Shown here: in pieces, positions 12,624 through 64,000 of the stretch
Layout of the letters: each line of letters opens with the position of its first letter
How positions within the stretch are numbered: the stretch's first letter is position 1
Origin: a virus
Lineage: Duplodnaviria; Caudoviricetes
DNA length: 64,000 nucleotides
Direction: 5' to 3' (one strand)
Virus record (IMG/VR): IMGVR_UViG_2816332268_000002
Span: 40,465-104,464 of that record
The notes under the pieces: model-generated
Databases searched by the model: none
Seen by the model: the letters and a program-made list of their open reading frames with translations, nothing else
What the model was told of the DNA's origin: nothing
Translations under genes and position numbers: made by a program

Positions 12624-12647
12624 TAGCCCGTTGATGTAGTCCATATA

Positions 12648-12667
12648 GTAAGTCACTAATGACTATA
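12648..12667. promoter_or_regulatory. Palindromic site before the lysis cassette
   Basis: GTAAGTCA-ctaa-TGACTATA. Confidence 0.8.
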
Positions 12668-12705
12668 CATCGTCGATGTTTGCGGATAACATCGGCGATG
12701 TTTTT
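12667..12705 (+). terminator. Putative intrinsic terminator of the tail operon (has an alternative fold)
   Basis: ACATCGTCGATGTT-7 nt loop-AACATCGGCGATGT followed by TTTT. Confidence 0.6.
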
Positions 12706-13660: not shown

Positions 13661-13926
13661 GCCTGCTTAAGCTGAAGATCTTCTTCCACCACTTGTTCAC
13701 GGAAGTCGATAACGCGACGCCGGATCTGGCGAAATACATGGCCGCGATCACGTCGCTGGACTTTGTGTTCACGCAGACGTGGGACACCGTCGTCAACAAG
13801 GTTCCGTTCAATGCTACGGCATTCGGCACAGGCGGCGCGGCTTTGTTCGCCGGCATCGGTGTGTGGATGGCTGTGAAGAAGGACTCCCCGATGAAGACCG
13901 ACGATGAGACGAAGGAGGCAGGCTGA
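13657..13926 (+). CDS. Putative holin
   Basis: ATGA overlap with the endolysin; 89 aa, hydrophobic segments, charged C-terminus. Confidence 0.6.
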   Translation: MSLLKLKIFFHHLFTEVDNATPDLAKYMAAITSLDFVFTQTWDTVVNKVPFNATAFGTGGAALFAGIGVWMAVKKDSPMKTDDETKEAG

Positions 13927-14510
13927 TGAATCCGCTCGCGAAGATTGGTGTGCTTGCGCTTGCCTGCGCCATCGCCTTCGGCGCAGGCGCCTACGTCGAC
14001 CGCCAGTTCGTGCTGGCATCGCGGGCAAAGCAGGAGGTGAAGGTTGTTGCGGGTGTAGCGACCGGCGTCGCAGTGGCGCAGACGAAGAGCAAGACGGTCG
14101 AGGCGGCAGTGACTGTCACTGCCGACAACATCGATCAGAACAAGGTCGCTATCCGTCATCGGGTTGCGGCGCAGATCAAGCGGGCCGTCGCGCCCGCGCC
14201 CACTCCCAGTGAGGAAGCACATGAAACGATGCGCGCTGCTTGCGGCGGCTTTTATCTTGATGTCGGCACTGTCCGCATGCTCAACGCAAGCCGCGCCGGA
14301 GTCGCTTTTCATTCCACCGCAAGCGGCGATGAAGCGGGCGACGCCGCTCCGGCCCTTTGCTTTACCGACTTCGTCGACGCCGACCAAGAACTGACGAAGC
14401 TCTACTTGGACCTGGCGCAGCGCCACGACGCGCTCGTCGATTCGGTGGAACAGTTTCAGAAGGAGCAGCGCGCGCGACTCGGTGTCGATGACACGCCGCT
14501 CGGCAAGTAG
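13926..14510 (+). CDS. Inner-membrane spanin (Rz-like)
   Basis: N-terminal TM helix and periplasmic coiled region; last gene of the lysis cassette. Confidence 0.75.
   Translation: MNPLAKIGVLALACAIAFGAGAYVDRQFVLASRAKQEVKVVAGVATGVAVAQTKSKTVEAAVTVTADNIDQNKVAIRHRVAAQIKRAVAPAPTPSEEAHETMRAACGGFYLDVGTVRMLNASRAGVAFHSTASGDEAGDAAPALCFTDFVDADQELTKLYLDLAQRHDALVDSVEQFQKEQRARLGVDDTPLGK
14221..14394 (+). CDS. Outer-membrane lipoprotein spanin (Rz1-like), embedded in Rz
   Basis: RBS GAGGA at 14211; MKRCALLAAAFILMSALSAC signal peptide with lipobox LSAC; Pro-rich mature part; +1 frame inside Rz. Confidence 0.75.
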   Translation: MKRCALLAAAFILMSALSACSTQAAPESLFIPPQAAMKRATPLRPFALPTSSTPTKN

Positions 14511-14514
14511 GAAG

Positions 14515-14543
14515 CCTCCCCGAGCCGCATCTTCTCGGGGAGG
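14515..14543 (+). terminator. Hairpin after the lysis cassette
   Basis: CCTCCCCGAG ... CTCGGGGAGG perfect 10-bp stem; no clear U-tract. Confidence 0.45.
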
Positions 14544-14664: not shown

Positions 14665-15351
14665 GTGCTCCATGAATTTTTCGGCCAGTCGTTGACACCG
14701 GCGGATTGCGAAATGCTTGCGTTGTCTCGTATCGCGCCGTCGTCGCGGGCGGTGGAGGCGCTGCTATTTCTGCGTAAGTGGTTCGACTACCGCCATCTGC
14801 ATCCCGTGCAAGCGACGTATCTATTCGCTCACGAGTATCACGATGCAATCAAGCGGGCATACGCACGGCAGAAGGACATCCGCACTGTCGAGAAGATCAA
14901 GCCGATCGACGTAGCGGGGTTGTTCGATAGCCGGGAGCTGGCCGCCGTATGGCGAGCGAGGCAGGCGTTCGACGCGGTCGGATGCCGGTATGAGTTCGGC
15001 CTCGACTTCGTCGTGCGCCGGGCATGCGATCGCGGTTGGCGGACATTTCCCCGGCCCAACCAGCTCTATGCAGAAGAGGTGGCGCTGGATCTGCGCGACG
15101 CATGGATTGCCGAATGCAAGAAGTCAATCCAGCTGGCGCGTGACGAGCGTTTTCTGATTGAGAACTACCGCGGCCACCCTGACCAAATTGCATACCAAGC
15201 GTGGCAGATCGACCAGATCAAGAGCCGCGGTGGTAACCGGGCAATGCTGCTTTCGCGGCTGCTGAGCGAGCGGGCCGTCTCTGAATCGGTGGCACGCGCG
15301 GCGTTCGGCGAGGTGACACTGCAGCAAGCGAAGCGTTTTTTTCTCAATTAG
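14665..15351 (+). CDS. Hypothetical phage protein upstream of the replication operon
   Basis: GTG start with RBS GAGG at 14652, after an AT-rich promoter region; KWFDYRHLHP motif. Confidence 0.7.
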   Translation: MLHEFFGQSLTPADCEMLALSRIAPSSRAVEALLFLRKWFDYRHLHPVQATYLFAHEYHDAIKRAYARQKDIRTVEKIKPIDVAGLFDSRELAAVWRARQAFDAVGCRYEFGLDFVVRRACDRGWRTFPRPNQLYAEEVALDLRDAWIAECKKSIQLARDERFLIENYRGHPDQIAYQAWQIDQIKSRGGNRAMLLSRLLSERAVSESVARAAFGEVTLQQAKRFFLN

Positions 15352-15352
15352 A

Positions 15353-15374
15353 GTAAGTAAGCAATGACTATAAT
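15353..15374. promoter_or_regulatory. Palindromic site plus TATAAT before hfq-dnaB
   Basis: GTAAGTAA-gcaa-TGACTATAAT; 15352-15375 identical to 18302-18325. Confidence 0.8.
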
Positions 15375-15416
15375 TAAGTCATCGCTAATTTTTCATCAAC
15401 TCACTGGAGTTCCAGC

Positions 15417-15800
15417 ATGACCCCCGAGCAAGCTCGCCAAGAACAGATCAACGCCGGCCGCCGAATGATTACGCTCGAGCATCGCACGCTCGAAAGCCGC
15501 ACGGGCAGTGTCGCTCGTCCGCAGTATGGGGAACAGCGCCCGCGTGCCACCGCACGCCCGCCGAAGGGTCACGATGCCATCCTCAAGGCGATGCAGGAAG
15601 AACGTCAGCTCGCCACGATCATCACTACGGGTGACGTCACGTTCGAAGGGCTGGTGACCGGCCGCGACAAATATACGATCACGCTGCTGACCAAGCATCC
15701 GAAGGACTCGACGCGTCTGATTCGTCGCGTGTTCTACAAGCATGCGATCGAACAGTTCTTCGGCGTGCCCCAGGACAGCGATACGTCGGCGGTGCAGTGA
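15417..15800 (+). CDS. hfq: Hfq/LSm-like protein
   Basis: Gapless Sm1 match (D.IL.A...ER....I.........G.....D.Y.I.L) and Sm2 YKHAI signature of Hfq. Confidence 0.8.
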   Translation: MTPEQARQEQINAGRRMITLEHRTLESRTGSVARPQYGEQRPRATARPPKGHDAILKAMQEERQLATIITTGDVTFEGLVTGRDKYTITLLTKHPKDSTRLIRRVFYKHAIEQFFGVPQDSDTSAVQ

Positions 15801-17197
15801 TGAGCGTGGTGGCATTGTCAGCAGTGCCGTCGACGACGCCGGCCGCAGAAGCGGCCGAGCCGCCGATGAGCAAGTTCCAGTTCGACGGTGACTTTCAGTC
15901 GCGTATTGCGGCCCTTACCCTGCGTGACACGTCCTTCAACCAGATGGTCGATGGGCTGGTCGAGCCGGGGCATTTCGAGTCTGAGATCGAGTCCTATCTT
16001 GTCAGCGTCGCGCTGCGCTACTGGAGCAAGTATCGCAAGGCACCGGCAAACATCGGCATCTACGCAATGCTATTGCGGGAAGACCTGGACGCCAAAGTGC
16101 TACCGAAAGCGCTCGGCGTTGCGGCGATCGCTCACCTGAAGAATCTGTTCGAGACGGACATTTCCGACCGCGACTTCGTGGTCGATCAGGTTGCGACGTT
16201 CGCTCGGCATCAGGCCATGCAGGCTGCGATGTTCAAGGCGATCCCGAAGCTCGACCGCAACGATTTCGACGGCATTTCGAAGCTCATGCAGACGGCGCTG
16301 AACGTCGGCGCGAACGCAGAGGGGGACACCTACGATTTTGCGGCGTCGATTGACAACCGCACCGGCATCCGTCTGGAGCGCGCGTCGGGCAAGCTGCCGC
16401 CGCAAGGCATCACGACCGGCTACCGGGTGATCGACGATCTGCTCTATCACCGCGGCTGGGGCCGCAAAGAGCTGTCGGTGCTACTGGGCGCTGCGAAGGC
16501 GGGCAAGACGACCGCGCTGATCGACTTCGGCATCGGTGCTTGGGCCGCCGGCCACAACGTCTACTACGCGTCGTGTGAAGTCTCGCGGGAGGTGATCTCC
16601 GACCGGATGGACGCCAACATCGCCGAGCAGGCAATGATGGAGCTCGGGGCGCACACGCACGAAGTCCGCGACAAGGTTCGCCTGTTCGCAGACCGCGCGC
16701 GGCGCGCCGACGGCACGAACGCGAAGTTCATGATCGACGAGTTCCCGACCGGCTCGCTGAAGGTGTCGGAGCTTCGTCGGCGTCTCGAGCGGTTCAAGCA
16801 GCAGGGCATCGTTTTCGATCTGGTCATCGTCGACTACGCCGACATCATGTCGCCGGAGCGAGTCACGGACTCCGCGATCGAGAATTCCAAGTCGGTCTAC
16901 GTTGACCTGCGCGGGTTGGCGATTCGAGAAGGGCTCGCAGTGCTGACCGCAACGCAGTCGAACCGGATCGGCGCGAACGCGAACGTCATCAAGGCCGAGC
17001 ACGTCGCTGAAGACTTCAACAAGGTCCGTATCGCAGACATCATCATTTCGATCAACCGCACCGAAGAAGAGCGCGCAGCGGGCCGGGCTCGGCTGTATTT
17101 CGCAGCGTCGCGAAACCAAGGCGGGGAATTCACGATTGAGATCGAGCAGGCGATGGACCGGATGAAGTTCATTACCAAGGTGCTCGGCTTCGCATAA
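15797..17197 (+). CDS. dnaB: Replicative DNA helicase (DnaB/gp41 family)
   Basis: Walker A GAAKAGKT; VIVDYAD; TATQSNR; AEDF.K. Confidence 0.92.
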   Translation: MMSVVALSAVPSTTPAAEAAEPPMSKFQFDGDFQSRIAALTLRDTSFNQMVDGLVEPGHFESEIESYLVSVALRYWSKYRKAPANIGIYAMLLREDLDAKVLPKALGVAAIAHLKNLFETDISDRDFVVDQVATFARHQAMQAAMFKAIPKLDRNDFDGISKLMQTALNVGANAEGDTYDFAASIDNRTGIRLERASGKLPPQGITTGYRVIDDLLYHRGWGRKELSVLLGAAKAGKTTALIDFGIGAWAAGHNVYYASCEVSREVISDRMDANIAEQAMMELGAHTHEVRDKVRLFADRARRADGTNAKFMIDEFPTGSLKVSELRRRLERFKQQGIVFDLVIVDYADIMSPERVTDSAIENSKSVYVDLRGLAIREGLAVLTATQSNRIGANANVIKAEHVAEDFNKVRIADIIISINRTEEERAAGRARLYFAASRNQGGEFTIEIEQAMDRMKFITKVLGFA

Positions 17198-17206
17198 GGA
17201 GCAACA

Positions 17207-18310
17207 ATGGCGACTGACGATCTGTCAGAGCTGCTGGATACCATCGATATGCCCTCGTGGATGGATCGCGAGGGCATTTCTTATCGGCTCACGCACGGCC
17301 GATCGGGCCAGCAAATCAACGTGCGGGAATGCCCGACGTGCGGCAACTCCGACTGGAAGGTCTACGTCAACGCCGACACCGGCGTCGGCAACTGCTTCGC
17401 CGGCTCGCACCCGGTCGAAGAGCGGATCTTCACCAAATACCGGTTCATTCGCGACCATCTGGGTCGGCCGCACGGTTCGAAAGTCATCGAGCACATCAGG
17501 GCATACGCGCGCGAACAGGGCTGGCGGCCGGCGCGACGTCAATCCGTCGAGGTCGAGAAGCATGTCGGCTGGGAGCTGCCGCAGCACATCGACCTACCTC
17601 ATGAGGGGCGCAACCTCGCCTATCTCGAGAACCGCGGCATCACTGCGGACCTGTCTGCGTATTTTCACCTCGCCTACTGCCCGCGCGGTGCGCACTTCCG
17701 GTATCCGGCCGAGCGTGGTTGGGCCTACCAGGACTACAGCGCACGCGTGCTGATCCCGGTGTTCGACATGGATGGGAAGCTCGCGACATTTCAGGGGCGC
17801 GACGTGACCGGCCATGCCGAGAAGAAGTATCTCTTCCCGCCGGGCATCGATGGATCGGGCGTGCATCTGTTCAACGGGCTCAACGTCCACGACACGAAGC
17901 GCATAGCGGTAGGTGAGGGCGCGTTCGACGTAGCGGCGATCAAGATCGCGCTCGACGCGGATCCGCAACTGCGCGACGTGGTTCCGGTGGGCACGTTCGG
18001 CAAGCACCTGTCGTCGGGCAGCGATAACAGTCAGCTCGCGAAGTTCATGTTGCTCAGGGAGCGCGGCGTCGAGGAGGTGACCTTCATGTGGGATGGGGAA
18101 GTTCAGGCGACCGACGACGCGGTCGAGGCCGGATTGATGCTGCGCCAGCACGGGTTTCGCGTGCGTATCGCAATGCTTCCGCCCGAGAAAGATCCGAACG
18201 AGGTGCCTGCCGAGGTGGTGCGGCGCGCGTTCTATGGGGCGACGCTGCTGAACGGGGTGTCAGCGATGCAGCTCCGAATGAGTCGTCGTATTATGAATTC
18301 AAGTAAGTAA
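17207..18310 (+). CDS. DNA primase (Zn finger plus TOPRIM)
   Basis: CPTC...C..H zinc finger; FQGR; VGEGAFD; WDGE; KDPNE; follows the helicase. Confidence 0.88.
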   Translation: MATDDLSELLDTIDMPSWMDREGISYRLTHGRSGQQINVRECPTCGNSDWKVYVNADTGVGNCFAGSHPVEERIFTKYRFIRDHLGRPHGSKVIEHIRAYAREQGWRPARRQSVEVEKHVGWELPQHIDLPHEGRNLAYLENRGITADLSAYFHLAYCPRGAHFRYPAERGWAYQDYSARVLIPVFDMDGKLATFQGRDVTGHAEKKYLFPPGIDGSGVHLFNGLNVHDTKRIAVGEGAFDVAAIKIALDADPQLRDVVPVGTFGKHLSSGSDNSQLAKFMLLRERGVEEVTFMWDGEVQATDDAVEAGLMLRQHGFRVRIAMLPPEKDPNEVPAEVVRRAFYGATLLNGVSAMQLRMSRRIMNSSK

Positions 18311-18324
18311 GCAATGACTATAAT
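18303..18324. promoter_or_regulatory. Palindromic site plus TATAAT
   Basis: GTAAGTAA-gcaa-TGACTATAAT. Confidence 0.8.
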
Positions 18325-18351
18325 TCAGGTATCAGCAATTTCGGAGGTGTC

Positions 18352-19775: not shown

Positions 19776-21167
19776 ATGAACTCCGACCAAGCTTTCGCGG
19801 CGATCGAGAACATCGCAGCCACCTCCAGCAAGAACGACAAGCAGGCGATGGTGAAGCAGTTCCTCGCGTTCGACACGTTCAAGCGCGTGCTCGTCGCAGC
19901 GCTCGACCCGCTGACCACCTACGGCATGACGCAGGTTCCCGGCCCGATCGAGAACGCGGCGCCCGGTGCGAACACGTTCGAGAACGCGCCGGTCTGGGAC
20001 TGCCTGGACAAGATGGCGAAGCGCGAGCTCACCGGCAACGCGGCCCGCGACGAGGTGCAACGCCTCATGACGTTCCTGACGCCCAGCTCGGCCGAACTGT
20101 TCAAGCGGATCATTCGCAAGGATCTGCGCGCCGGCTTCTCCGAGTCGACGGTCAACAAGGCATGGAAGGGGCTGATTCCCGAATTCCCCTACATGCGTTG
20201 CGCGCTGCTGAAGGACGCGAAGCTCGATGCGTGGACGTGGGGCGAGGGCGTTATCTCGCAGGAGAAGGCAGACGGCATGTTCATGAATGTCGACCACGAG
20301 ACGGGCGGGGTGGTTCGCATCACCAGTCGCCAGGGCTCGCCGTTCCCTCTCGAGGCATTCGGTGGTTTCGTTGACCACGTCCGCGCCTTGTTCCCGGCCG
20401 GCACGCAGACGCACGGTGAAATGCTGGTGCTCGTCGACGGCGCGATCGCCCCGCGCGAAATCAGCAACGGCATCCTGAACCGCATTTCCGCGGGCGGCGA
20501 GTTCGAAGCCAACGAAGTGCCCCGGTTCTTCGCATGGGATCAAATCCCGCTGAGCGTCGTCGCGCCGAAGGGCAAATACGAAGTCGGCTACTGCGAACGC
20601 ATCAAGGCGCTGCTGCTCGGGCTGGCGGCCGGCGCACGCGCGCTGCCGGGAATCGACCCGATGATTCAGCATATTCCGACTCGCATCGTGCATTCGCTCG
20701 AGGAGGCGCTCGCCCACTACCGCGAGCTCCTGGCGCAAGGCAAGGAAGGCACGATCATCAAGAACGGCAACGCGATCTGGAAGGACGGCACGAGCAAGGA
20801 GCAGATCAAGCTCAAGCTTGAGGTGGACGTCGACCTTAAGTGCATCGCGATCGTGGACGGCCGCACCGGCACGAAGAACGAGGGCCGTGCCGGTTCGCTG
20901 ACCTGCACGTCGTCCTGCGGTCAGCTTCAAGTCGACGTGACCGTGAAGAACGAGGCGCTGCGCGACTCGATCGACGCGAACCCGAACGACTTCATCGGCC
21001 GCATCTTCGCGGTGCGCGCGAACTCGATCATGAAGCCGTCCGAGAGCAACGCGTTGCACTCGCTGTTCCTCCCGCGCATGGTCGAGGCGAGCTATCGGAT
21101 CGACAAGACCGAAGCCGACGACCTGGCCCGCGTCGAGCATCAGTTCGCATCGGCGGTGGCGGCATGA
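19767..21167 (+). CDS. ATP-dependent DNA ligase (T4-like)
   Basis: Motif I QEKADG; HGE; WD; EG.IIK; KLK; SLFLPR; start re-assigned to ATG 19767 behind RBS AAGGA. Confidence 0.92.
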   Translation: MTHMNSDQAFAAIENIAATSSKNDKQAMVKQFLAFDTFKRVLVAALDPLTTYGMTQVPGPIENAAPGANTFENAPVWDCLDKMAKRELTGNAARDEVQRLMTFLTPSSAELFKRIIRKDLRAGFSESTVNKAWKGLIPEFPYMRCALLKDAKLDAWTWGEGVISQEKADGMFMNVDHETGGVVRITSRQGSPFPLEAFGGFVDHVRALFPAGTQTHGEMLVLVDGAIAPREISNGILNRISAGGEFEANEVPRFFAWDQIPLSVVAPKGKYEVGYCERIKALLLGLAAGARALPGIDPMIQHIPTRIVHSLEEALAHYRELLAQGKEGTIIKNGNAIWKDGTSKEQIKLKLEVDVDLKCIAIVDGRTGTKNEGRAGSLTCTSSCGQLQVDVTVKNEALRDSIDANPNDFIGRIFAVRANSIMKPSESNALHSLFLPRMVEASYRIDKTEADDLARVEHQFASAVAA

Positions 21168-21370
21168 GCGCGCAACTAACCGGAAAGCTGTTGAGCACCG
21201 TCGCTGAGCTGAAGGAGGCGATCAAGGACTTGCCGGACGACATGCAGGTCGCGACGGTGATGTCGTCCGGCGTCATCATCCCGATCGGGCTTTCGATCGC
21301 TCGGCGAGGGAAGAGCAACAAGAACTACACCGTGACGCGCGGCGGCGTCGAAATCCTCTGCATCCGGTAA
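21164..21370 (+). CDS. Hypothetical protein
   Basis: ATGA overlap; TVAELKEAIKDLPDDMQV motif common in small phage proteins. Confidence 0.65.
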   Translation: MSAQLTGKLLSTVAELKEAIKDLPDDMQVATVMSSGVIIPIGLSIARRGKSNKNYTVTRGGVEILCIR

Positions 21371-21379
21371 AGGCCCGAC

Positions 21380-21586
21380 ATGAAAACCATCACGCTCAAC
21401 GAGATCCGCGCGGCGTCGCCGTTCCCGTGGGTCACGCAGGTCAACTTCAACGGCATGGGTGGCGTTCGCATGCTCGATGCAACCGGCAAGGAAGTCCCGC
21501 TGCTGAACATCACGGCGCTGGCTGGAATTCTGACCACAACGCTCGCGGCCGCGCCAGCGACCGCCCAAGCGGAGGGCGTCTCATGA
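21380..21586 (+). CDS. Hypothetical protein
   Basis: Operon spacing and codon usage. Confidence 0.6.
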   Translation: MKTITLNEIRAASPFPWVTQVNFNGMGGVRMLDATGKEVPLLNITALAGILTTTLAAAPATAQAEGVS

Positions 21587-24234: not shown

Positions 24235-26409
24235 ATGCGCGTAAACAACAACGTTCTGATACTGCGGGAAGCGATCACCAAGATCGTTCCGATGTTAACT
24301 CAGCGTTCAGTGAAGGTTACACAACAGGGGACGCGTGCTTACGTGGCATACAGCCGCAAGACGCACGCGATCGAGCGCGTGAACCTTCCCTATATTCCTG
24401 ACGACGCGGACGATCAGTTGCTCGCTGCGACGCAGGGCTTTCTCGATCATGAAGTCGGCCACATCCTCTTTACGGACCAGAAGGCGGTCGTGAAGGCAGA
24501 GAAGCTGGGGATCCACTGGCTGCACAACTTGGTCGAGGACACCTACGTTGAGCGCAAGATGGGCGAGCGCTTTCCGGGCTCGGGCGGCCACCTCAGTCGG
24601 ATGCATAGCTTCTTCTTGCGCGAATACATCGATAGCCAGCTCCGCGAGGCGCCAGAGCAGGCGAAGAACATCCTGCTGGTCCCCGCGTTCCGCGCCCTGG
24701 CAGGGCAGCCGGCGTTCATCGACTACATGGCAGGCAAGTGGGATCAAGTCGGCGATGTCGTCGACAAGCTCGGCAAGGACTTCGGGAAGCTGTTGAGGGG
24801 CATCAACAGCTCGTGGGACAGCCTGAAGGTTGCGGAGGAGGCGAAGAAGCGCCTGTCGGCCCCGACGCCGAAACCCAAAGCGCCGCCGCCGCCCGCTGCG
24901 CCACCCGAGCCGCCGGAGCCCGGCATGTCGGGCGACGAAAGCGAACCGGATGAAGCGGCTGCGGGCGATCCCAGCGGCGGTAGCGAGCCGCTGTCAGAAG
25001 CAGAGCCGCTGCCAGAAGCAGGGCTGGTGGAAGAGCAAGACCTGGAGCCGACGGCCGAGTCCGAGAGTGGGTCGAGCGGCGCACCCGAAGGTGAGGATAT
25101 TCGGGATGAGCCCGCGCCGGAAGGTGATGGCGAACAGGGCGACACTGACGCAAGCGCAGAGGCGGGAGAGGGCGCCGACTCGGCGGCCGACGAAGACCAG
25201 GACGACCCGAGCGACGAGCAGGGCGACGGCATGCTGGGTGGCGATGCCGCTCAGGGCGATCAGCCGTCCGAAGACGGCGAAGAGCAGGAGCAAACCGAGA
25301 ATAGCTCTGGCGAGACGGGCGCGTCTGGTGCAGAAGGCGAAGACGAGGGCGATGCCGGCGAGCAGGGCACGATGCCAGCTGGTGGCGCCCCTGCAGAGAA
25401 CGAAGAGTCGACGACGTCGCTGTTCGATGAGTTGAACGAGTCGCCGGCGCCTGACTTCGACGAGGCAGCTGCAGAGGCGCTGTCGAAGAATGCGCGCACC
25501 GCCACGAAGGGTTCGCAGTATTCCCTGTTCTCGCGGGACTATGACGACGTGTCGCTTCTGGAGGTCGATGAGGGGTTCAACCAGGATCTCGTGACTCGTA
25601 TGCAGAAGGAAGTCGATCACATGATCGGGCCGCTCCAGAAGACGCTCGAGCGTGCAGTTGCTGCGCGTTCGGCCGCGGTATGGACTGGCGGTCACAAGAC
25701 GGGCCGGCTGCATGGACCGTCGCTCGCGCGGATCAGCGTCGGACGCTCGGACGTGTTTCGACGCAAGCAGACCAATAAGACGAAGGACGTCGCGGTCGAG
25801 CTGCTCGTGGACTGCTCCGGGTCGATGTGGTCGCATCGCAAGATGGTGATCGCCGCGTATTCGGCATATGCGCTGTCTTCGGTCCTGGATCAGCTGAGCA
25901 TCCCGAACGAAGTGCTTGCCTTCACGACGAAGGATTATCCGCGCGAGGCGCTCGAGCAGTTGGTCCGCGAAGAGCAGGAGGGCGGTTTCGTCTACACGCG
26001 CCGCTCAGCCCTGCGTCTCGCAATCGTGAAGGGGTTCAACGAGCGCATGACGCCCGACATTCGTCGCCGATTCGCGCAGTTGGCGCACTGCGACGACATG
26101 ATGGCCGAGAACGTCGACGGTGAATCAGTGCAGATCGCCGCCCGCCGCCTGATGCAGCAGCGCGCAGAGCGGAAGATCCTCAAGGTGCTGTCGGATGGCA
26201 TGCCGGCGTGCAACGGGATGAGCGCCGCACTGAACGAGCACCTGAAGGAGGTCGTTCGCAAGGTCGAGGCATCCGGCGTCGACGTCATCGGCTTGGGGAT
26301 CGTCTCGGATGCGGTGGAGGCGTTCTACCGCTCGCACGTCGTGCTGAACGACGTCAAGGATCTGCCGACCACTGTCATGAAGGAGTTGCACCGACTCCTC
26401 TTGAAGTGA
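24235..26409 (+). CDS. CobT-like VWA protein with an N-terminal HExxH domain and an acidic linker
   Basis: LDHEVGH..HNLVED; MIDAS DCSGSM; LSDG.P; paired with a MoxR-type ATPase. Confidence 0.85.
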   Translation: MRVNNNVLILREAITKIVPMLTQRSVKVTQQGTRAYVAYSRKTHAIERVNLPYIPDDADDQLLAATQGFLDHEVGHILFTDQKAVVKAEKLGIHWLHNLVEDTYVERKMGERFPGSGGHLSRMHSFFLREYIDSQLREAPEQAKNILLVPAFRALAGQPAFIDYMAGKWDQVGDVVDKLGKDFGKLLRGINSSWDSLKVAEEAKKRLSAPTPKPKAPPPPAAPPEPPEPGMSGDESEPDEAAAGDPSGGSEPLSEAEPLPEAGLVEEQDLEPTAESESGSSGAPEGEDIRDEPAPEGDGEQGDTDASAEAGEGADSAADEDQDDPSDEQGDGMLGGDAAQGDQPSEDGEEQEQTENSSGETGASGAEGEDEGDAGEQGTMPAGGAPAENEESTTSLFDELNESPAPDFDEAAAEALSKNARTATKGSQYSLFSRDYDDVSLLEVDEGFNQDLVTRMQKEVDHMIGPLQKTLERAVAARSAAVWTGGHKTGRLHGPSLARISVGRSDVFRRKQTNKTKDVAVELLVDCSGSMWSHRKMVIAAYSAYALSSVLDQLSIPNEVLAFTTKDYPREALEQLVREEQEGGFVYTRRSALRLAIVKGFNERMTPDIRRRFAQLAHCDDMMAENVDGESVQIAARRLMQQRAERKILKVLSDGMPACNGMSAALNEHLKEVVRKVEASGVDVIGLGIVSDAVEAFYRSHVVLNDVKDLPTTVMKELHRLLLK

Positions 26410-26428
26410 TTTTTTTACGCCCGAAAGG

Positions 26429-26448
26429 ATAAGTAAAAAGTGACTTTA
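26429..26448. promoter_or_regulatory. Palindromic site overlapping a TTTACA -35 box
   Basis: ATAAGTAA-aaag-TGACTTTA. Confidence 0.75.
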
Positions 26449-26525
26449 CAAAGCCAAGCGGGCACCTCTATTATTCACCAATCGCTTAATTTCTTGAATT
26501 TTTCGTGTTGAACACGGGGGAACGA

Positions 26526-27716
26526 ATGAACGAGTCCAACGGCAAGATCGCGTGCGCCATCTGCGGCGCGATGATCCATTCGGTTGAGCTGCACCTGAAG
26601 GACAAGCATGAAGACATGACGCTTCACCAATATCAGGCTCAGTATCCGAATGCGCCGGTTCTGTCTGAGGTCGCAAAGTCTGCGATCGCAAAGCGCCTGG
26701 CAGAGCAGGGCAGCGCCGCGCCGGCGGTCGCTATGGCCGGCAGCGCAATGCCGGCGAATGTCACCGCGCTCAATCCGAACGGGGAGACGACAGGCGCTCT
26801 GCATGAAGTCTTTGGGCTCGGTGACGCGCCGGCCGGCAAGAATGGACGCGGTCAGCCGATCCCCGTGACGGTCTTTGCCAACCCGTCGAATCCCGAATTT
26901 GTGCCCGCTGTCGACAGCGGCTTCATCTTCGACGTGGACAACCTCAAGAACGCCTTGATGGCGATCGAACTCGGAAAGAACCTGTTTGTCTGGGGCCACG
27001 CTGGGACGGGCAAGACGACGCTCGTCGAGCAGATCGCGGCACGCACCGGGCGTCCCGTCGTTCGCATTCAGCACTCGATCGGCACCGAAGAAGCGCATGT
27101 GCTCGGCCAGTGGGTCGTGCGTAACGGTGAAACCGTCTTCGAGCCCGGCCTGCTGCCGCTCGCGATGCGTCATGGCTGGATCTATCTCGCCGACGAATAC
27201 GACTTCGGGTTGCCGGCCGTCCTCGCCGTGTATCAGCCTATTCTCGAATATGGTAAGTCACTAATTATTAAAGATGCGTCGCCGGAGTGGCGCGTCGTGA
27301 AGCCACACCCGAACTTCCGATTCGTTGCGACAGGCAACACGAACGGCTCCGGTGACGACACGGGCCTGTATCAGGGCACGCAGATTCAGAACGCTGCGAA
27401 CTTCGACCGGTTTGGCATGGTCATTGAGGCGACCTACATGAAGCCTGAGCTCGAGCAATTGATCCTCGTGAACCGGTCGAAGATCAAGTCGGACCAGGCA
27501 CAAAAACTGGTGCAGTTCGCGAACATGGTGCGCGATTCGTATCGGTCGAAGGAAATCAGCAACACGATCTCGCCGCGCTGCCTGATCGATGCGGCCGATA
27601 TCGGGCTGCGCAAGGGCAGCTGGCGCGCAGGCCTGACGCTCGCCTTCATCAACAAACTTTCGCCCGTTGATCGTCAAGTCGTCGACGGCGTCGCATCGCG
27701 CATCTTCACCAGCTAA
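26526..27716 (+). CDS. CobS/MoxR-like AAA+ ATPase with an N-terminal C2H2 zinc finger
   Basis: CAIC...H...H; GHAGTGKT; LADEYD; HPNFRFVATGNT; DRF; ISPR. Confidence 0.88.
   Translation: MNESNGKIACAICGAMIHSVELHLKDKHEDMTLHQYQAQYPNAPVLSEVAKSAIAKRLAEQGSAAPAVAMAGSAMPANVTALNPNGETTGALHEVFGLGDAPAGKNGRGQPIPVTVFANPSNPEFVPAVDSGFIFDVDNLKNALMAIELGKNLFVWGHAGTGKTTLVEQIAARTGRPVVRIQHSIGTEEAHVLGQWVVRNGETVFEPGLLPLAMRHGWIYLADEYDFGLPAVLAVYQPILEYGKSLIIKDASPEWRVVKPHPNFRFVATGNTNGSGDDTGLYQGTQIQNAANFDRFGMVIEATYMKPELEQLILVNRSKIKSDQAQKLVQFANMVRDSYRSKEISNTISPRCLIDAADIGLRKGSWRAGLTLAFINKLSPVDRQVVDGVASRIFTS
27253..27272. promoter_or_regulatory. Intragenic degenerate site
   Basis: GTAAGTCA-ctaa-TTATTAAA, an AT-rich patch in a GC-rich CDS. 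Confidence 0.55.
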
Positions 27717-27725
27717 GGACCGGCC

Positions 27726-28382
27726 ATGCTTGCCCACGCAGAAACGGGGGCGGCTACGGCCGCCCGCAGTGCCTACTACACCGACAACATCGGTCTTCTC
27801 CATAAGTTCGCGAAGAAGGGGTTCGGCCGACTCGCGGAAGCAGGTGTCTCGGTTGATTACGAGGACGTCTATCAGCAGATGACCGAAAGCCTCGTGCGCT
27901 GTATCTCCACCTTTGATCCGACCAAGGGCTGGAAATTCTCTGCCTACTTCGGTCAGTCGTGCTGGAACAACTTCAACAAGTGGGCCGAGCGCATGATCGA
28001 AGAGCGAACGAGACTCGGTCTGGTGAGCACCGAGGCGCTGGCAGGCGACGGGCTCGACGAGGGCGGTAGCGGCGACAGCTACGAGTTCCTCTCGTCCCAG
28101 GATGAAGAGGAAGACGCAGACACGCCCGAGAGCCTGCTCGAGCGTCGCCAGTCGCGGTTGGCAAACATTGCGATGCTCACCCCGAATGCGAAGCGCGTTG
28201 TGGCGTTGCTGCTGCACCAGACGCCCGAATTCATGGCGTTCTTCGAAGAGACGTGCGAGCGCATGGTGCTGCCGCCGAAGGACATCACGCTGCGCATGAT
28301 CTTTCGGTTCCTGAGCCTGAAGAAGTCGGAGTGCGATCGCGTCCGGGCCGAGCTCGAGCGCGTCTATGGGGTTGCGCTGTAA
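27726..28382 (+). CDS. Sigma-70-like factor (region 2)
   Basis: NIGLLHKFAKK...EDVYQ....LVRCISTFDPTKGWKFSAY matches sigma regions 2.1-2.3. Confidence 0.75.
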   Translation: MLAHAETGAATAARSAYYTDNIGLLHKFAKKGFGRLAEAGVSVDYEDVYQQMTESLVRCISTFDPTKGWKFSAYFGQSCWNNFNKWAERMIEERTRLGLVSTEALAGDGLDEGGSGDSYEFLSSQDEEEDADTPESLLERRQSRLANIAMLTPNAKRVVALLLHQTPEFMAFFEETCERMVLPPKDITLRMIFRFLSLKKSECDRVRAELERVYGVAL

Positions 28383-33036: not shown

Positions 33037-33062
33037 TGGATGTCTTCGTTTTAACCTCTAAA

Positions 33063-33084
33063 GTAAGTCACAACTGACTATAAT
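33063..33084. promoter_or_regulatory. Palindromic site plus TATAAT before ssb
   Basis: GTAAGTCA-caac-TGACTATAAT. Confidence 0.8.
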
Positions 33085-33180
33085 TGTGATGTGAGATGGG
33101 CAGATTAAAACTCCGCCCGTCAATCAAACTGTTCGTAACTTCCGACTTAACTGTCACTGAAACTGTTCAAGGAAACTTGC

Positions 33181-37788: not shown

Positions 37789-38196
37789 ATGGTTTTAGCG
37801 TCCGCACTTTTGTGCCTGGCACTCAATGTGTATTACGAGAGCCGCTCTGAACCCATCCTGGGCCAATACGCCGTTGCTGCGGTCACAATGAACCGCGCGG
37901 ATGGCGACAAGAGCAAGGTATGTGAGGTCGTCACGAAGCCGCACCAGTTCAGCTGGACCACGCGCCGTGTTCGTCGCAAGGGCGATAGCTATACGCTGGT
38001 CAGGTCGGCTGCTCCGAAGGATGAGGAGGCTTGGGAAGTAGCGAAGAAGGTTGCGTGGCAGACCCTGCACGGTCACAAGATCGACGTCACGCATGGCGCC
38101 ACCTTTTACCACGCGAACTATGTGCGCCCAGCTTGGAGGAAGGGGGTCAAGCGCTCAGCTGTCATCGGGAAGCATATTTTTTATACCCAAACATAA
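37789..38196 (+). CDS. Cell wall hydrolase, SleB/Hydrolase_2 family
   Basis: CLALNVYYESRSE...GQ.AVA.V.MNR...CEVV....QFSW...GATFYH..YV.P.W...IG.HIFY. Confidence 0.9.
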   Translation: MVLASALLCLALNVYYESRSEPILGQYAVAAVTMNRADGDKSKVCEVVTKPHQFSWTTRRVRRKGDSYTLVRSAAPKDEEAWEVAKKVAWQTLHGHKIDVTHGATFYHANYVRPAWRKGVKRSAVIGKHIFYTQT

Positions 38197-38214
38197 GTCA
38201 GTAGTGACTATAAT
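38193..38214. promoter_or_regulatory. Palindromic site plus TATAAT
   Basis: ATAAGTCA-gtag-TGACTATAAT. Confidence 0.8.
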
Positions 38215-38260
38215 AAATTCGCAGCACCCGTATTCAACCTACCAATACTCCAGGAACACC

Positions 38261-62725: not shown

Positions 62726-64000
62726 TTATGCCGCGGCCTTGATTTCGGGTTCCCCTGCGTGCTCGACCGAGGCGGCCGCCAACTGCTCAAGATGAACATC
62801 GAGCTTGGAGATCCATTCCCGACGTTCCTTATCGTAGGTATGGCGGTTGTAGGCGCCTTCGACGCCACCTAGAACGTGTCCCAGCATCACCTCGCCCACG
62901 TCCCGAGGGCAGCCGAGTGACGCCAAGATCGTGCGAACGGTGCGCCGCAAATCATGCGGTGACCAGTGCGTTACGGTCAGTCTAGGGTGAAAGCCTCGGC
63001 TCTTGCTATAGGGCTGCCAGTGGTAGACGGCGGTCTGAACGATCAACTGGCTCGTAGCTTCTCCCTTCTTGTTGGGAAAGAGGGAGCCGTTTCCGAACCG
63101 TAGCATGCGAGCCAATACTATCTCTTTGGAGCGGCCCACCAGAGGAACTCGCATGTCGGTAGCGCTATCGACGTTGTGATTCTTGGTTTTGGCTTTCGGT
63201 ATGGTCCACCACCAACCGTCCGATTCCTCAGAGATTTCCGCTCCTTCCATCGAGCAGATTTCGCCGCCGCGTGTTCCGGTCCACAGGTAGAGAGTCAGGG
63301 CATCGTGGAGCAAGGTGGAGCAGCGGGGGAACCACCGGAACAATTCGATGAGTTCCGACGAGGACAGGACGCGCTTCTCTTTTCGTAAGGCGCCACCTTG
63401 TCGCTTCCCTTTGCTCCGTAGCTTGCCACGCATGATGTTTTGCCACCAGTTTGGCGTTGATTCTGGAATGCGGCCGGCGTCCATCGCGTGAATCCAGGCT
63501 AGGTTCAGTTCGCAGCGAAGCTTGCTTGCCATCGCAGGGATGTGCGCAAGGGATTGGAGCAGATCGAAGCATTCGGCGCGCTTCAGGTTCTTGATCTCGA
63601 TGTTCTCAATACTCGAGAGATACTGATCGAACATATATTGGACGAGGTCGGCGCCCTTGATCTTCCGTGCCTTGAGGACGTGCTCGTTGTAGTAGTCGGT
63701 GCACGCCATCCTGACCGTGTAGGGCGGTCTTGAGGCTTCCAGCTGCTGGTCGAGCAGGCGCTGCCTTTCGAGCTTTCGGTTAAGGGCGACGTCGAGCCCT
63801 GAGCTTCGAATGCGGCGTTGTTCTTCCCAAGCGGCGATAGCCGCGGCAAAGGGCAGGGCCGGCCACTCCCCGAGCTTGATCTGCTTCATCTTGCCGTCTA
63901 GGGGAGACTTGTATCGGTAGATCCAAGTCCTGCGTTTGGTGGTCGCAGCGATCCGAAGTCCGACGAAGCCGTCGATTGCTTCGTCAGTTCCCGGAGTCAT
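62726..64000 (-). CDS. int: Tyrosine integrase with arm-DNA-binding domain (probably 5'-truncated by the window)
   Basis: GLR....R.WIYRY...G.WP arm domain; TGTRGGE; KTK; HDLRRT; LGH; Y. Confidence 0.93.
   Translation of the reverse strand: MTPGTDEAIDGFVGLRIAATTKRRTWIYRYKSPLDGKMKQIKLGEWPALPFAAAIAAWEEQRRIRSSGLDVALNRKLERQRLLDQQLEASRPPYTVRMACTDYYNEHVLKARKIKGADLVQYMFDQYLSSIENIEIKNLKRAECFDLLQSLAHIPAMASKLRCELNLAWIHAMDAGRIPESTPNWWQNIMRGKLRSKGKRQGGALRKEKRVLSSSELIELFRWFPRCSTLLHDALTLYLWTGTRGGEICSMEGAEISEESDGWWWTIPKAKTKNHNVDSATDMRVPLVGRSKEIVLARMLRFGNGSLFPNKKGEATSQLIVQTAVYHWQPYSKSRGFHPRLTVTHWSPHDLRRTVRTILASLGCPRDVGEVMLGHVLGGVEGAYNRHTYDKERREWISKLDVHLEQLAAASVEHAGEPEIKAAA

Follow-up and report, generated by a model that had tools for sequence, protein, structure and literature searches.

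A divergent Hfq/Sm-family protein encoded directly before the dnaB gene of a temperate Burkholderia phage

Hfq is the textbook sRNA chaperone of bacteria, and the links to DNA reported for it are so far marginal. Its proximal face binds U-rich RNA, and in E. coli Hfq represses its own translation by way of its own leader. Hfq-like proteins are also encoded on archaeal plasmids: in Thermococcus and Methanocaldococcus plasmids, the gene for a Zn-finger-Hfq-like protein adjoins a helicase gene within one transcription unit, and the authors who described these proteins proposed for them a role in replication of the element (PMC3543421). Folds of the Sm/Hfq type are common among uncharacterized phage proteins, Adephagia gp39 being a further example (PMC11373665). 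For the Burkholderia cepacia complex, a survey of RNA-binding proteins reports Hfq and Hfq2 only (PMC7074383). It is already known that automatic pipelines label relatives of the phage protein treated here as "Hfq"; searches of the literature turned up neither functional work on a phage protein of the Hfq type adjoining dnaB nor any account of the subfamily or of its coupling to dnaB. The original prediction for this locus saw in the protein either a dominant-negative subunit or sRNA sponge that rewires host regulation, or an Sm ring co-opted for replication.

The DNA analyzed here (the window, 64,000 nucleotides) makes up the right-hand 64 kb of an IMG/VR provirus record that is 104,464 bp long and has an estimated completeness of 94%. 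The host element is a temperate Burkholderia phage, an integrase-bearing provirus of ∼104 kb: the record ends on the right with a tyrosine integrase gene (window 62726-64000, minus strand), two genes with ParB_N domains lie left of the window (record positions 19937-21517), and the record also carries a lysis cassette, a family-A-like DNA polymerase, and an ATP-dependent ligase. Judged by DnaB (38-43% identity), the relatives of the element are ∼110-kb Nickievirus siphophages, Rhizobium RHEph10-like and Stenotrophomonas phages, and SSU5-like phage-plasmids (PMC7969092). The window also holds a gene pair (24235-27716, plus strand) for a CobT-like protein (phrog_1576, 724 aa) and a CobS/MoxR-like AAA+ protein (phrog_249, 403 aa), as in SSU5-type and T5-related phages. 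Some members of the lineage may be episomal, since the B. cepacia contig with an 84%-identical relative of the Hfq-like protein measures 105,092 bp, close to the length of the complete element.

Table 1. Features of the Hfq-like/dnaB/primase region and copies of the recurrent motif (window coordinates)
Feature	Position	Strand	Evidence or remarks
Motif copies AGTAAGT-N4-A-N-TGACTATAAT	12647-12670, 15352-15375, 18302-18325, 33062-33085, 38192-38215	+	
Conserved 228-aa all-alpha protein, phrog_2500	14665..15351	+	phrog_2500 E 5.7e-45
Promoter-like motif AGTAAGTAAGCAATGACTATAATT	15352..15382	+	begins immediately past the stop codon of the upstream gene; 3' part is a palindrome, ATGACT-ATAATTA-AGTCAT
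Short leader with U5 tract (AAUUUUUCA) and GGAG ribosome-binding site	15383..15416	+	sequence read; GGAG 9 nt 5' of the ATG
Hfq-like (Sm-fold) gene	15417..15800	+	127 aa; Pfam, HMM, AF2, Foldseek, and alignment evidence
DnaB-like replicative helicase	15800..17197	+	PF03796 E 1.2e-13; phrog_19 E 2.8e-71
DnaG-type primase, last gene of the unit	17207..18310	+	phrog_47 E 3e-47; PF08275

The ORF at 15417-15800 encodes a genuine but divergent member of the Hfq/Sm family, and the original prediction of a phage-encoded Hfq was to this extent correct. Its likeness to Hfq is real and far beyond chance, as several lines of evidence indicate. The Pfam Hfq model PF17209, whose use had been proposed as a check, matches residues 53-114 (E = 4.5e-6) with 26.6 bits against a gathering threshold of 27, and a six-frame search of the element with the same model gave 27.1 bits. 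BLASTP with E. coli K-12 Hfq gave an E value of 7e-6; hhalign matched a profile of 60 diverse relatives to residues 8-68 of E. coli Hfq (96.4% probability, E = 1.3e-9); and a profile search of PDB sequences reached B. subtilis and S. aureus Hfq at E values of 5.8e-5 to 8e-5. An AlphaFold2 (AF2) model, computed for the monomer from an input alignment of 23 sequences, has a core (residues 52-116; pLDDT >90) of one helix and five strands (H52-61, E65-70, E75-83, E87-93, E101-107, E111-116), that is, the Sm fold of the Hfq family with its N-terminal α-helix and five bent β-strands. Outside this core the model shows an N-terminal helix (residues 3-18) and a basic disordered linker (19-50). Foldseek against the PDB returned >150 matches at E ≤ 1e-3; all those listed are Hfq, with a probability of 1.0 and TM(target) of 0.71-0.83, so that the core resembles solved Hfq structures with a TM score of ∼0.8. 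The Sm fold, on which the original prediction hinged, is thus what the model shows.

Set against these matches are the NCBIfam Hfq equivalog models TIGR02383 and NF001602, which gave 21.3 and 14.3 bits versus cut-offs of 61.7 and 95; with such scores, far under the cut-off, the protein belongs to a paralogous subfamily and is not an Hfq orthologue. This distance, together with an identity to Hfq of only ∼25%, also speaks against the idea that the protein interferes with host Hfq. Neither a frame open by chance nor a shadow of the antisense ORF at 15396-15815 is a tenable reading of the ORF, because homology, conservation, and synteny all follow the plus strand.

An exhaustive HMMER search found at least 165 clusters (50% identity) at E ≤ 1e-3, nearly all of those listed being 80-150 aa long; a few long repetitive proteins among the matches were taken as spurious. 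A word-indexed search gave 23 relatives, including proteins of B. cepacia (84% identity) and B. vietnamiensis (63%), both named "RNA chaperone Hfq" at NCBI. When Pfam was run on the 60 diverse relatives, 56 matched Hfq (E ≤ 0.01, best 7e-13), 7 matched Hfq_1, and 3 matched LSM. In PHROGs, the window protein had only weak matches, to phrog_5258 and phrog_19781, which are families of unknown function. Searches of 50,697 phage records by megablast of the region, tblastn of the window protein, and tblastn of a more central family member yielded no match; gp117 of Pseudomonas phage nickie was the only tblastn query to find any, in six Nickievirus records. Fold matches in BFVD include nickie gp117 (the second best), "Hfq-like domain" proteins of mycobacteriophages, and "RNA binding proteins" of actinophages. 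The family is a distinct phage subfamily of the Hfq/Sm superfamily, one that is large and, with a pocket and core that are invariant or nearly so across the 60 relatives, under selection; the automatic label "RNA chaperone Hfq" carried by its members is probably misleading.

Residue by residue, hhalign and BLASTP agree on the correspondence with E. coli Hfq and reproduce the substitutions that had been read from the sequence. On the proximal face, which was said to be largely kept, D9, D40, and Y55-K56-H57 are retained (as D53, D84, and Y107-K108-H109) and F42 becomes Y86; Q8 and Q41 are replaced by H52 and K85. The Sm1 residue G34 is retained as G78. The rim residues R16 and R17 become Q60 and E61, with R19 retained as R63, and the distal-face residues Y25, G29, and K31 become I69, D73, and T75. 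The claim of a gapless alignment needs amendment: it holds up to L46, after which a lengthened β3-β4 loop, adjoining distal position 25, precedes the YKHAI motif and opens an 8-residue gap in the BLASTP alignment.

Conservation was counted across 60 clusters with mutual identity of <50%. The Sm1 residues G34 and D40 are each present in 60/60. The Sm2 motif, [YF]KHAI, reads Y107-K108-H109-A110-I111 in the window protein, with K in 60/60 clusters, H in 54/60, and Y/F in 60/60. The proximal uridine pocket of Hfq (Q8, Q41, F42, K56, H57) keeps its aromatic residue, Lys, and His, and the two substitutions in it, Q8 to His and Q41 to Lys, are invariant or nearly so: besides the Lys and His just counted, the pocket has H in 60/60 (at the position of Q8), D/E in 60/60, K/R in 59/60, and F/Y in 60/60. 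The rim patch of the E. coli matchmaker (Arg16/Arg17/Arg19), whose basic residues catalyze annealing, has become neutral or acidic in the family: Q replaces R16 in 51/60 clusters, D/E replaces R17 in 36/60, and the third position is a mixture of G, K, and R. Nor is the distal A-R-N site with its aromatic residue 25 retained; that position is aromatic in just 2 of the 60 clusters. The change of G29 to D is peculiar to the window protein, as Gly is kept in 51/60. The β3-β4 stretch varies from 5 to 24 residues across the family versus 6 in Hfq; we consider that this lengthened loop and the altered rim would make mixed rings with host Hfq unlikely.

The Arg-rich N-terminal extension of ∼50 aa in the original prediction is borne out: the first 50 residues contain 9 Arg and 1 Lys versus 5 acidic residues. 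Across the family this arm is 43 residues long at the median and carries a net charge of 0 to +7, against an approximately neutral core. A helix motif, R..Q...R, occurs in the arm of 32/60 clusters; the N-terminal helix is missing from one sub-clade, in which synteny is still kept. The subfamily can be recognized by the motifs PKGHDAILKALQ, GRDK[YF]TIT, and YKHAIExF, by the basic N-terminal arm, and by a variable, extended β3-β4 hairpin. On the sequence evidence, this pattern says that what matters is the ring core together with the pore-side nucleotide pocket, that neither the rim used in annealing nor the A-rich site on the distal face does, and that a basic arm has been added.

The Hfq-like gene opens a unit of three genes, in which those for the DnaB helicase and the DnaG primase follow it. 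These genes look like one transcription unit, because a copy of the recurrent motif lies before the Hfq-like gene and the next copy (18302) follows only after the primase. The Hfq-like gene is also translationally coupled to dnaB. At their junction the window reads GTGATGA, in which TGATG is a stop codon overlapping an ATG. We read 20 such junctions, and each has a TGATG, TAATG, or ATGA overlap or a gap of ≤8 nt; moreover, in the 84%-identical relative the GTG of the window is replaced by GTA. Given these junctions, dnaB most likely starts at ATG 15800 (1-nt overlap) and not at GTG 15797: the overlap reported in the original prediction is real, although not in the form of GTGA.

A survey of synteny, also proposed as a check, covered 26 other loci with a relative, namely four loci from assemblies, 21 IMG/VR contigs, two weak representative matches (one of them at E = 2e-4), and phage nickie. 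A DnaB homologue lies directly 3' of the Hfq-like gene in all 26; a phrog_2500-like gene (215-250 aa) lies directly 5' in 25, the remaining locus starting 48 bases before the gene; and a primase gene follows wherever the locus extends far enough. Unlike the fixed Hfq-like/DnaB junction, the interval between DnaB and primase holds 0 to 3 small ORFs that are variable and unrelated. Because the 26 loci come from a single phage lineage whose gene order is generally conserved, their synteny amounts to about one evolutionary observation, not 26. Tight gene overlaps are common in phage operons and are no proof of protein-protein interaction. The helicase-primase arrangement, kept in all 26, points to a putative role in phage DNA replication rather than in classic sRNA regulation. 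In Rhizobium phages RHEph10 and B1VFA and in SSU5-like Cyrano the same slot has only a short gap and no Hfq-like gene, which is thus dispensable for this type of replisome.

Stenotrophomonas phage ANB28 has in the same slot a 69-aa "hypothetical" ORF that overlaps the DnaB start (1778-1987 of the locus); we left it out of the family count. Its hhalign probability of matching the family is 0.8%, it has no Pfam match, and its six PDB sequence matches are non-significant (E = 0.8-1.4), five of them being Sm/LSm proteins. It is possibly a very divergent Sm-like protein before DnaB.

The motif AGTAAGTnnnnAnTGACTATAAT that precedes the unit occurs at five positions in the window (Table 1), all on the plus strand and intergenic, versus 0 expected by chance, and distant relatives have related TAAGTCA-N-CTATAMT motifs 5' of their Hfq-like genes. 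The spacing within the motif is not that of a σ70 −35/−10 pair, and a simple promoter scan did not pick it up. We regard it as a putative promoter of the unit, typical of the lineage. The original prediction gave the gene an operator/−10 of its own; a promoter-like motif is indeed present upstream, but it is one of five copies, and only the right arm of its palindrome is site specific. The motif starts on, or just past, the stop codon of the gene before it, and TAAGTAAG also gives stops in two frames. Site-specific inverted repeats, such as TCACAA...TTGTGA at 33068, often surround it. A σ-like gene lies at 27726-28382.

Upstream of the Hfq-like gene, the phrog_2500 gene likely starts at GTG 14665, which is preceded by the ribosome-binding site GAGAGGAAG, and not as a longer ORF from 14482. 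The AF2 model of its product is confident (pLDDT 92.2, pTM 0.88); Foldseek of this model against the PDB found nothing at E ≤ 0.001 (E > 0.8), and the best VIA-align Z score was 4.2. A phrog_2500 gene also lies 5' of DnaB in relatives that lack the Hfq-like gene; we list its product as a candidate initiator or loader. Just after the last ORF of the lysis cassette (13926-14510), there is a perfect 10-bp GC-rich hairpin (CCTCCCCGAG N9 CTCGGGGAGG; 14515-14543, plus strand); an AT-rich stretch containing CCTATAATTAAT comes next, before the phrog_2500 gene. This region is likely a module boundary; the hairpin has no T-run, and for this reason a terminator scan made no call there.

The reading that we favor, with about even confidence, is that the Hfq-like protein is a non-essential accessory of the replication module, one that keeps hold of single-stranded nucleic acid in the vicinity of DnaB and primase. 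We infer that it would assemble as an Sm-type ring and hold single-stranded, U/T-rich nucleic acid in the proximal pocket (His52, Asp53, Lys85, Tyr86, Lys108, His109), with help from the basic arms. Its site of action would be where helicase and primase begin, with origin transcripts, R-loops, primer RNA, or exposed ssDNA as its substrate or through direct contact with DnaB, and it would have no role as a global sRNA-mRNA matchmaker. We prefer this reading because of the conservation pattern, the presumed co-production with helicase and primase, the archaeal plasmid precedent, and the lack of an SSB or a recognized loader: a canonical SSB (PF00436) had no match anywhere in the 104,464-bp record, and no helicase loader was recognized among the neighbors scanned. 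Of the two ideas in the original prediction, an Sm ring co-opted for replication appears to fit better than a dominant-negative subunit or sRNA sponge, given the invariant synteny and coupling with DnaB, a helicase-primase unit that is not moron-like, presence of the gene in plaque-isolated Nickievirus phages, and again the archaeal precedent. Counting against a replication role is that the best-conserved surface is the classical uridine pocket of an RNA chaperone, which fits RNA regulation equally well.

RNA regulation is accordingly the main rival, one that we regard as possible although on the unlikely side: the protein would be a phage RNA chaperone or translational regulator whose ring binds U-rich leaders or phage transcripts and tunes the helicase-primase mRNA (autoregulation) and possibly other phage messages, its position before dnaB reflecting co-regulation only. 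Besides the uridine pocket and Hfq family membership, the leader itself is in keeping with such a role. A T-run of ≥4 is present in 13/21 leaders of Hfq-like genes versus 4/18 leaders of neighboring genes with equal T content (Fisher p = 0.02); because the leaders compared are related sequences, this weak statistic is a hint only. Loss of the rim arginines and of the distal A-rich site throughout the family argues against annealing and matchmaking, although not against simple binding. Rfam and tRNA scans of the window returned nothing, and a fixed, coupled position before dnaB, maintained at 30% identity, is unexpected for a general regulator.

A stronger form of the accessory reading makes the protein a dedicated helicase loader, the hexameric Sm ring or its N-terminal helices docking on the DnaB hexamer to open or deliver it, in place of a loader of the DnaC, λ P, or DciA type. 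We know of no Sm ring for which helicase loading has been demonstrated. Start/stop coupling to dnaB, which would give roughly equimolar synthesis of two presumed hexamers, is consistent with such a loader, as are the conserved R..Q...R helix on its flexible linker, reminiscent of loader "hooks," and the failure to recognize a known loader nearby. We nevertheless consider a dedicated loader less likely, and in fact improbable: the helix is missing from a whole sub-clade that keeps the synteny, related phages with a homologous DnaB (38-42% identity) do without the gene, and the product of the conserved phrog_2500 gene upstream has just as strong a claim to be the loader.

Least supported, and in our view very improbable, is a takeover of host regulation through mixed, inactive rings with host Hfq/Hfq2 or through sponging of host sRNAs: the modeled Sm fold with a β4/β5 interface of the type common to Hfq would allow it, and Burkholderia hosts do rely on two Hfq proteins (PMC7074383), but the gene lies in a replication operon and not where lysogeny genes or morons are located, the family retains a signature of its own across hosts whose Hfq proteins differ greatly, and the dominant-negative or sponge idea, for a protein with a neutral or acidic rim, has no positive support.

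A broader and more speculative proposal, which we hold to be rather unlikely as it stands, is that Sm/Hfq rings form a recurrent, unrecognized class of replisome accessories in mobile elements; in this lineage the ring, produced in step with DnaB, would enable DnaB and primase to begin work by docking on the helicase or by holding the primer strand or the transcript of the origin, and the archaeal plasmids would have arrived at the same solution convergently. What we describe is a large phage subfamily that has kept the pocket, lacks the annealing rim and A-rich site, and is locked to a replicative helicase gene. It offers a clean natural system for asking what an Sm ring does at a replication fork or origin, and suggests a candidate function for an unnamed gene of Nickievirus biocontrol phages and large Burkholderia prophages.

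Compared with bacterial Hfq (E. coli; B. subtilis, 3HSB/3AHU; S. aureus, 1KQ1), the phage protein shares the Sm fold, the Sm1 Gly/Asp, the Sm2 YKHAI, and aromatic 42 and Lys56/His57 of the proximal uridine pocket. It differs in having His for Q8, Lys for Q41, Gln and acidic residues on the rim, no distal Tyr25, and a longer β3-β4 segment. Bacterial Hfq carries a C-terminal tail, whereas the phage protein has a basic N-terminal arm (∼50 aa here), and the miaA-hfq-hflX context of the bacterial gene contrasts with the helicase-primase operon of the phage gene. Burkholderia Hfq2 (∼189 aa) is likewise an extra Hfq-family protein with an appended basic/disordered region (PMC7074383); it is, however, chromosomal and conserved in the genus, with its extension at the C terminus, so that the phage protein represents a third type, unmentioned in that survey. 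With helicase loaders and partners (λ P, DnaC/DnaI, DciA, T4 gp59), the common feature is a gene that adjoins and is co-expressed with the helicase gene, which suggests at most a functional analogy, as these proteins have no sequence or fold similarity to the Hfq-like protein.

On archaeal plasmids pP12-1, pCIR10, pIRI48, and pMETVU01, an Hfq-like domain is similarly joined to an extra N-terminal nucleic-acid-binding module on a mobile element (PMC3543421); there the module is a C2H2 zinc finger instead of a basic arm, and the gene lies 3' of a helicase gene of a different type. Pseudomonas phage nickie gp117 (YP_009620715, "hypothetical") occupies the same slot between a phrog_2500-like gene and DnaB, overlaps the DnaB start, matches Pfam Hfq (E = 4.4e-5), and shares 30% identity with the window protein; in Nickievirus Nican01, a protein of this type is labeled "hfq." Unlike the window protein, gp117 is only 89 aa long, with a short N-terminal arm, and the gp117 type comes from plaque-isolated 112-kb phages of Pseudomonas syringae, whereas the protein described here is encoded by a Burkholderia provirus.
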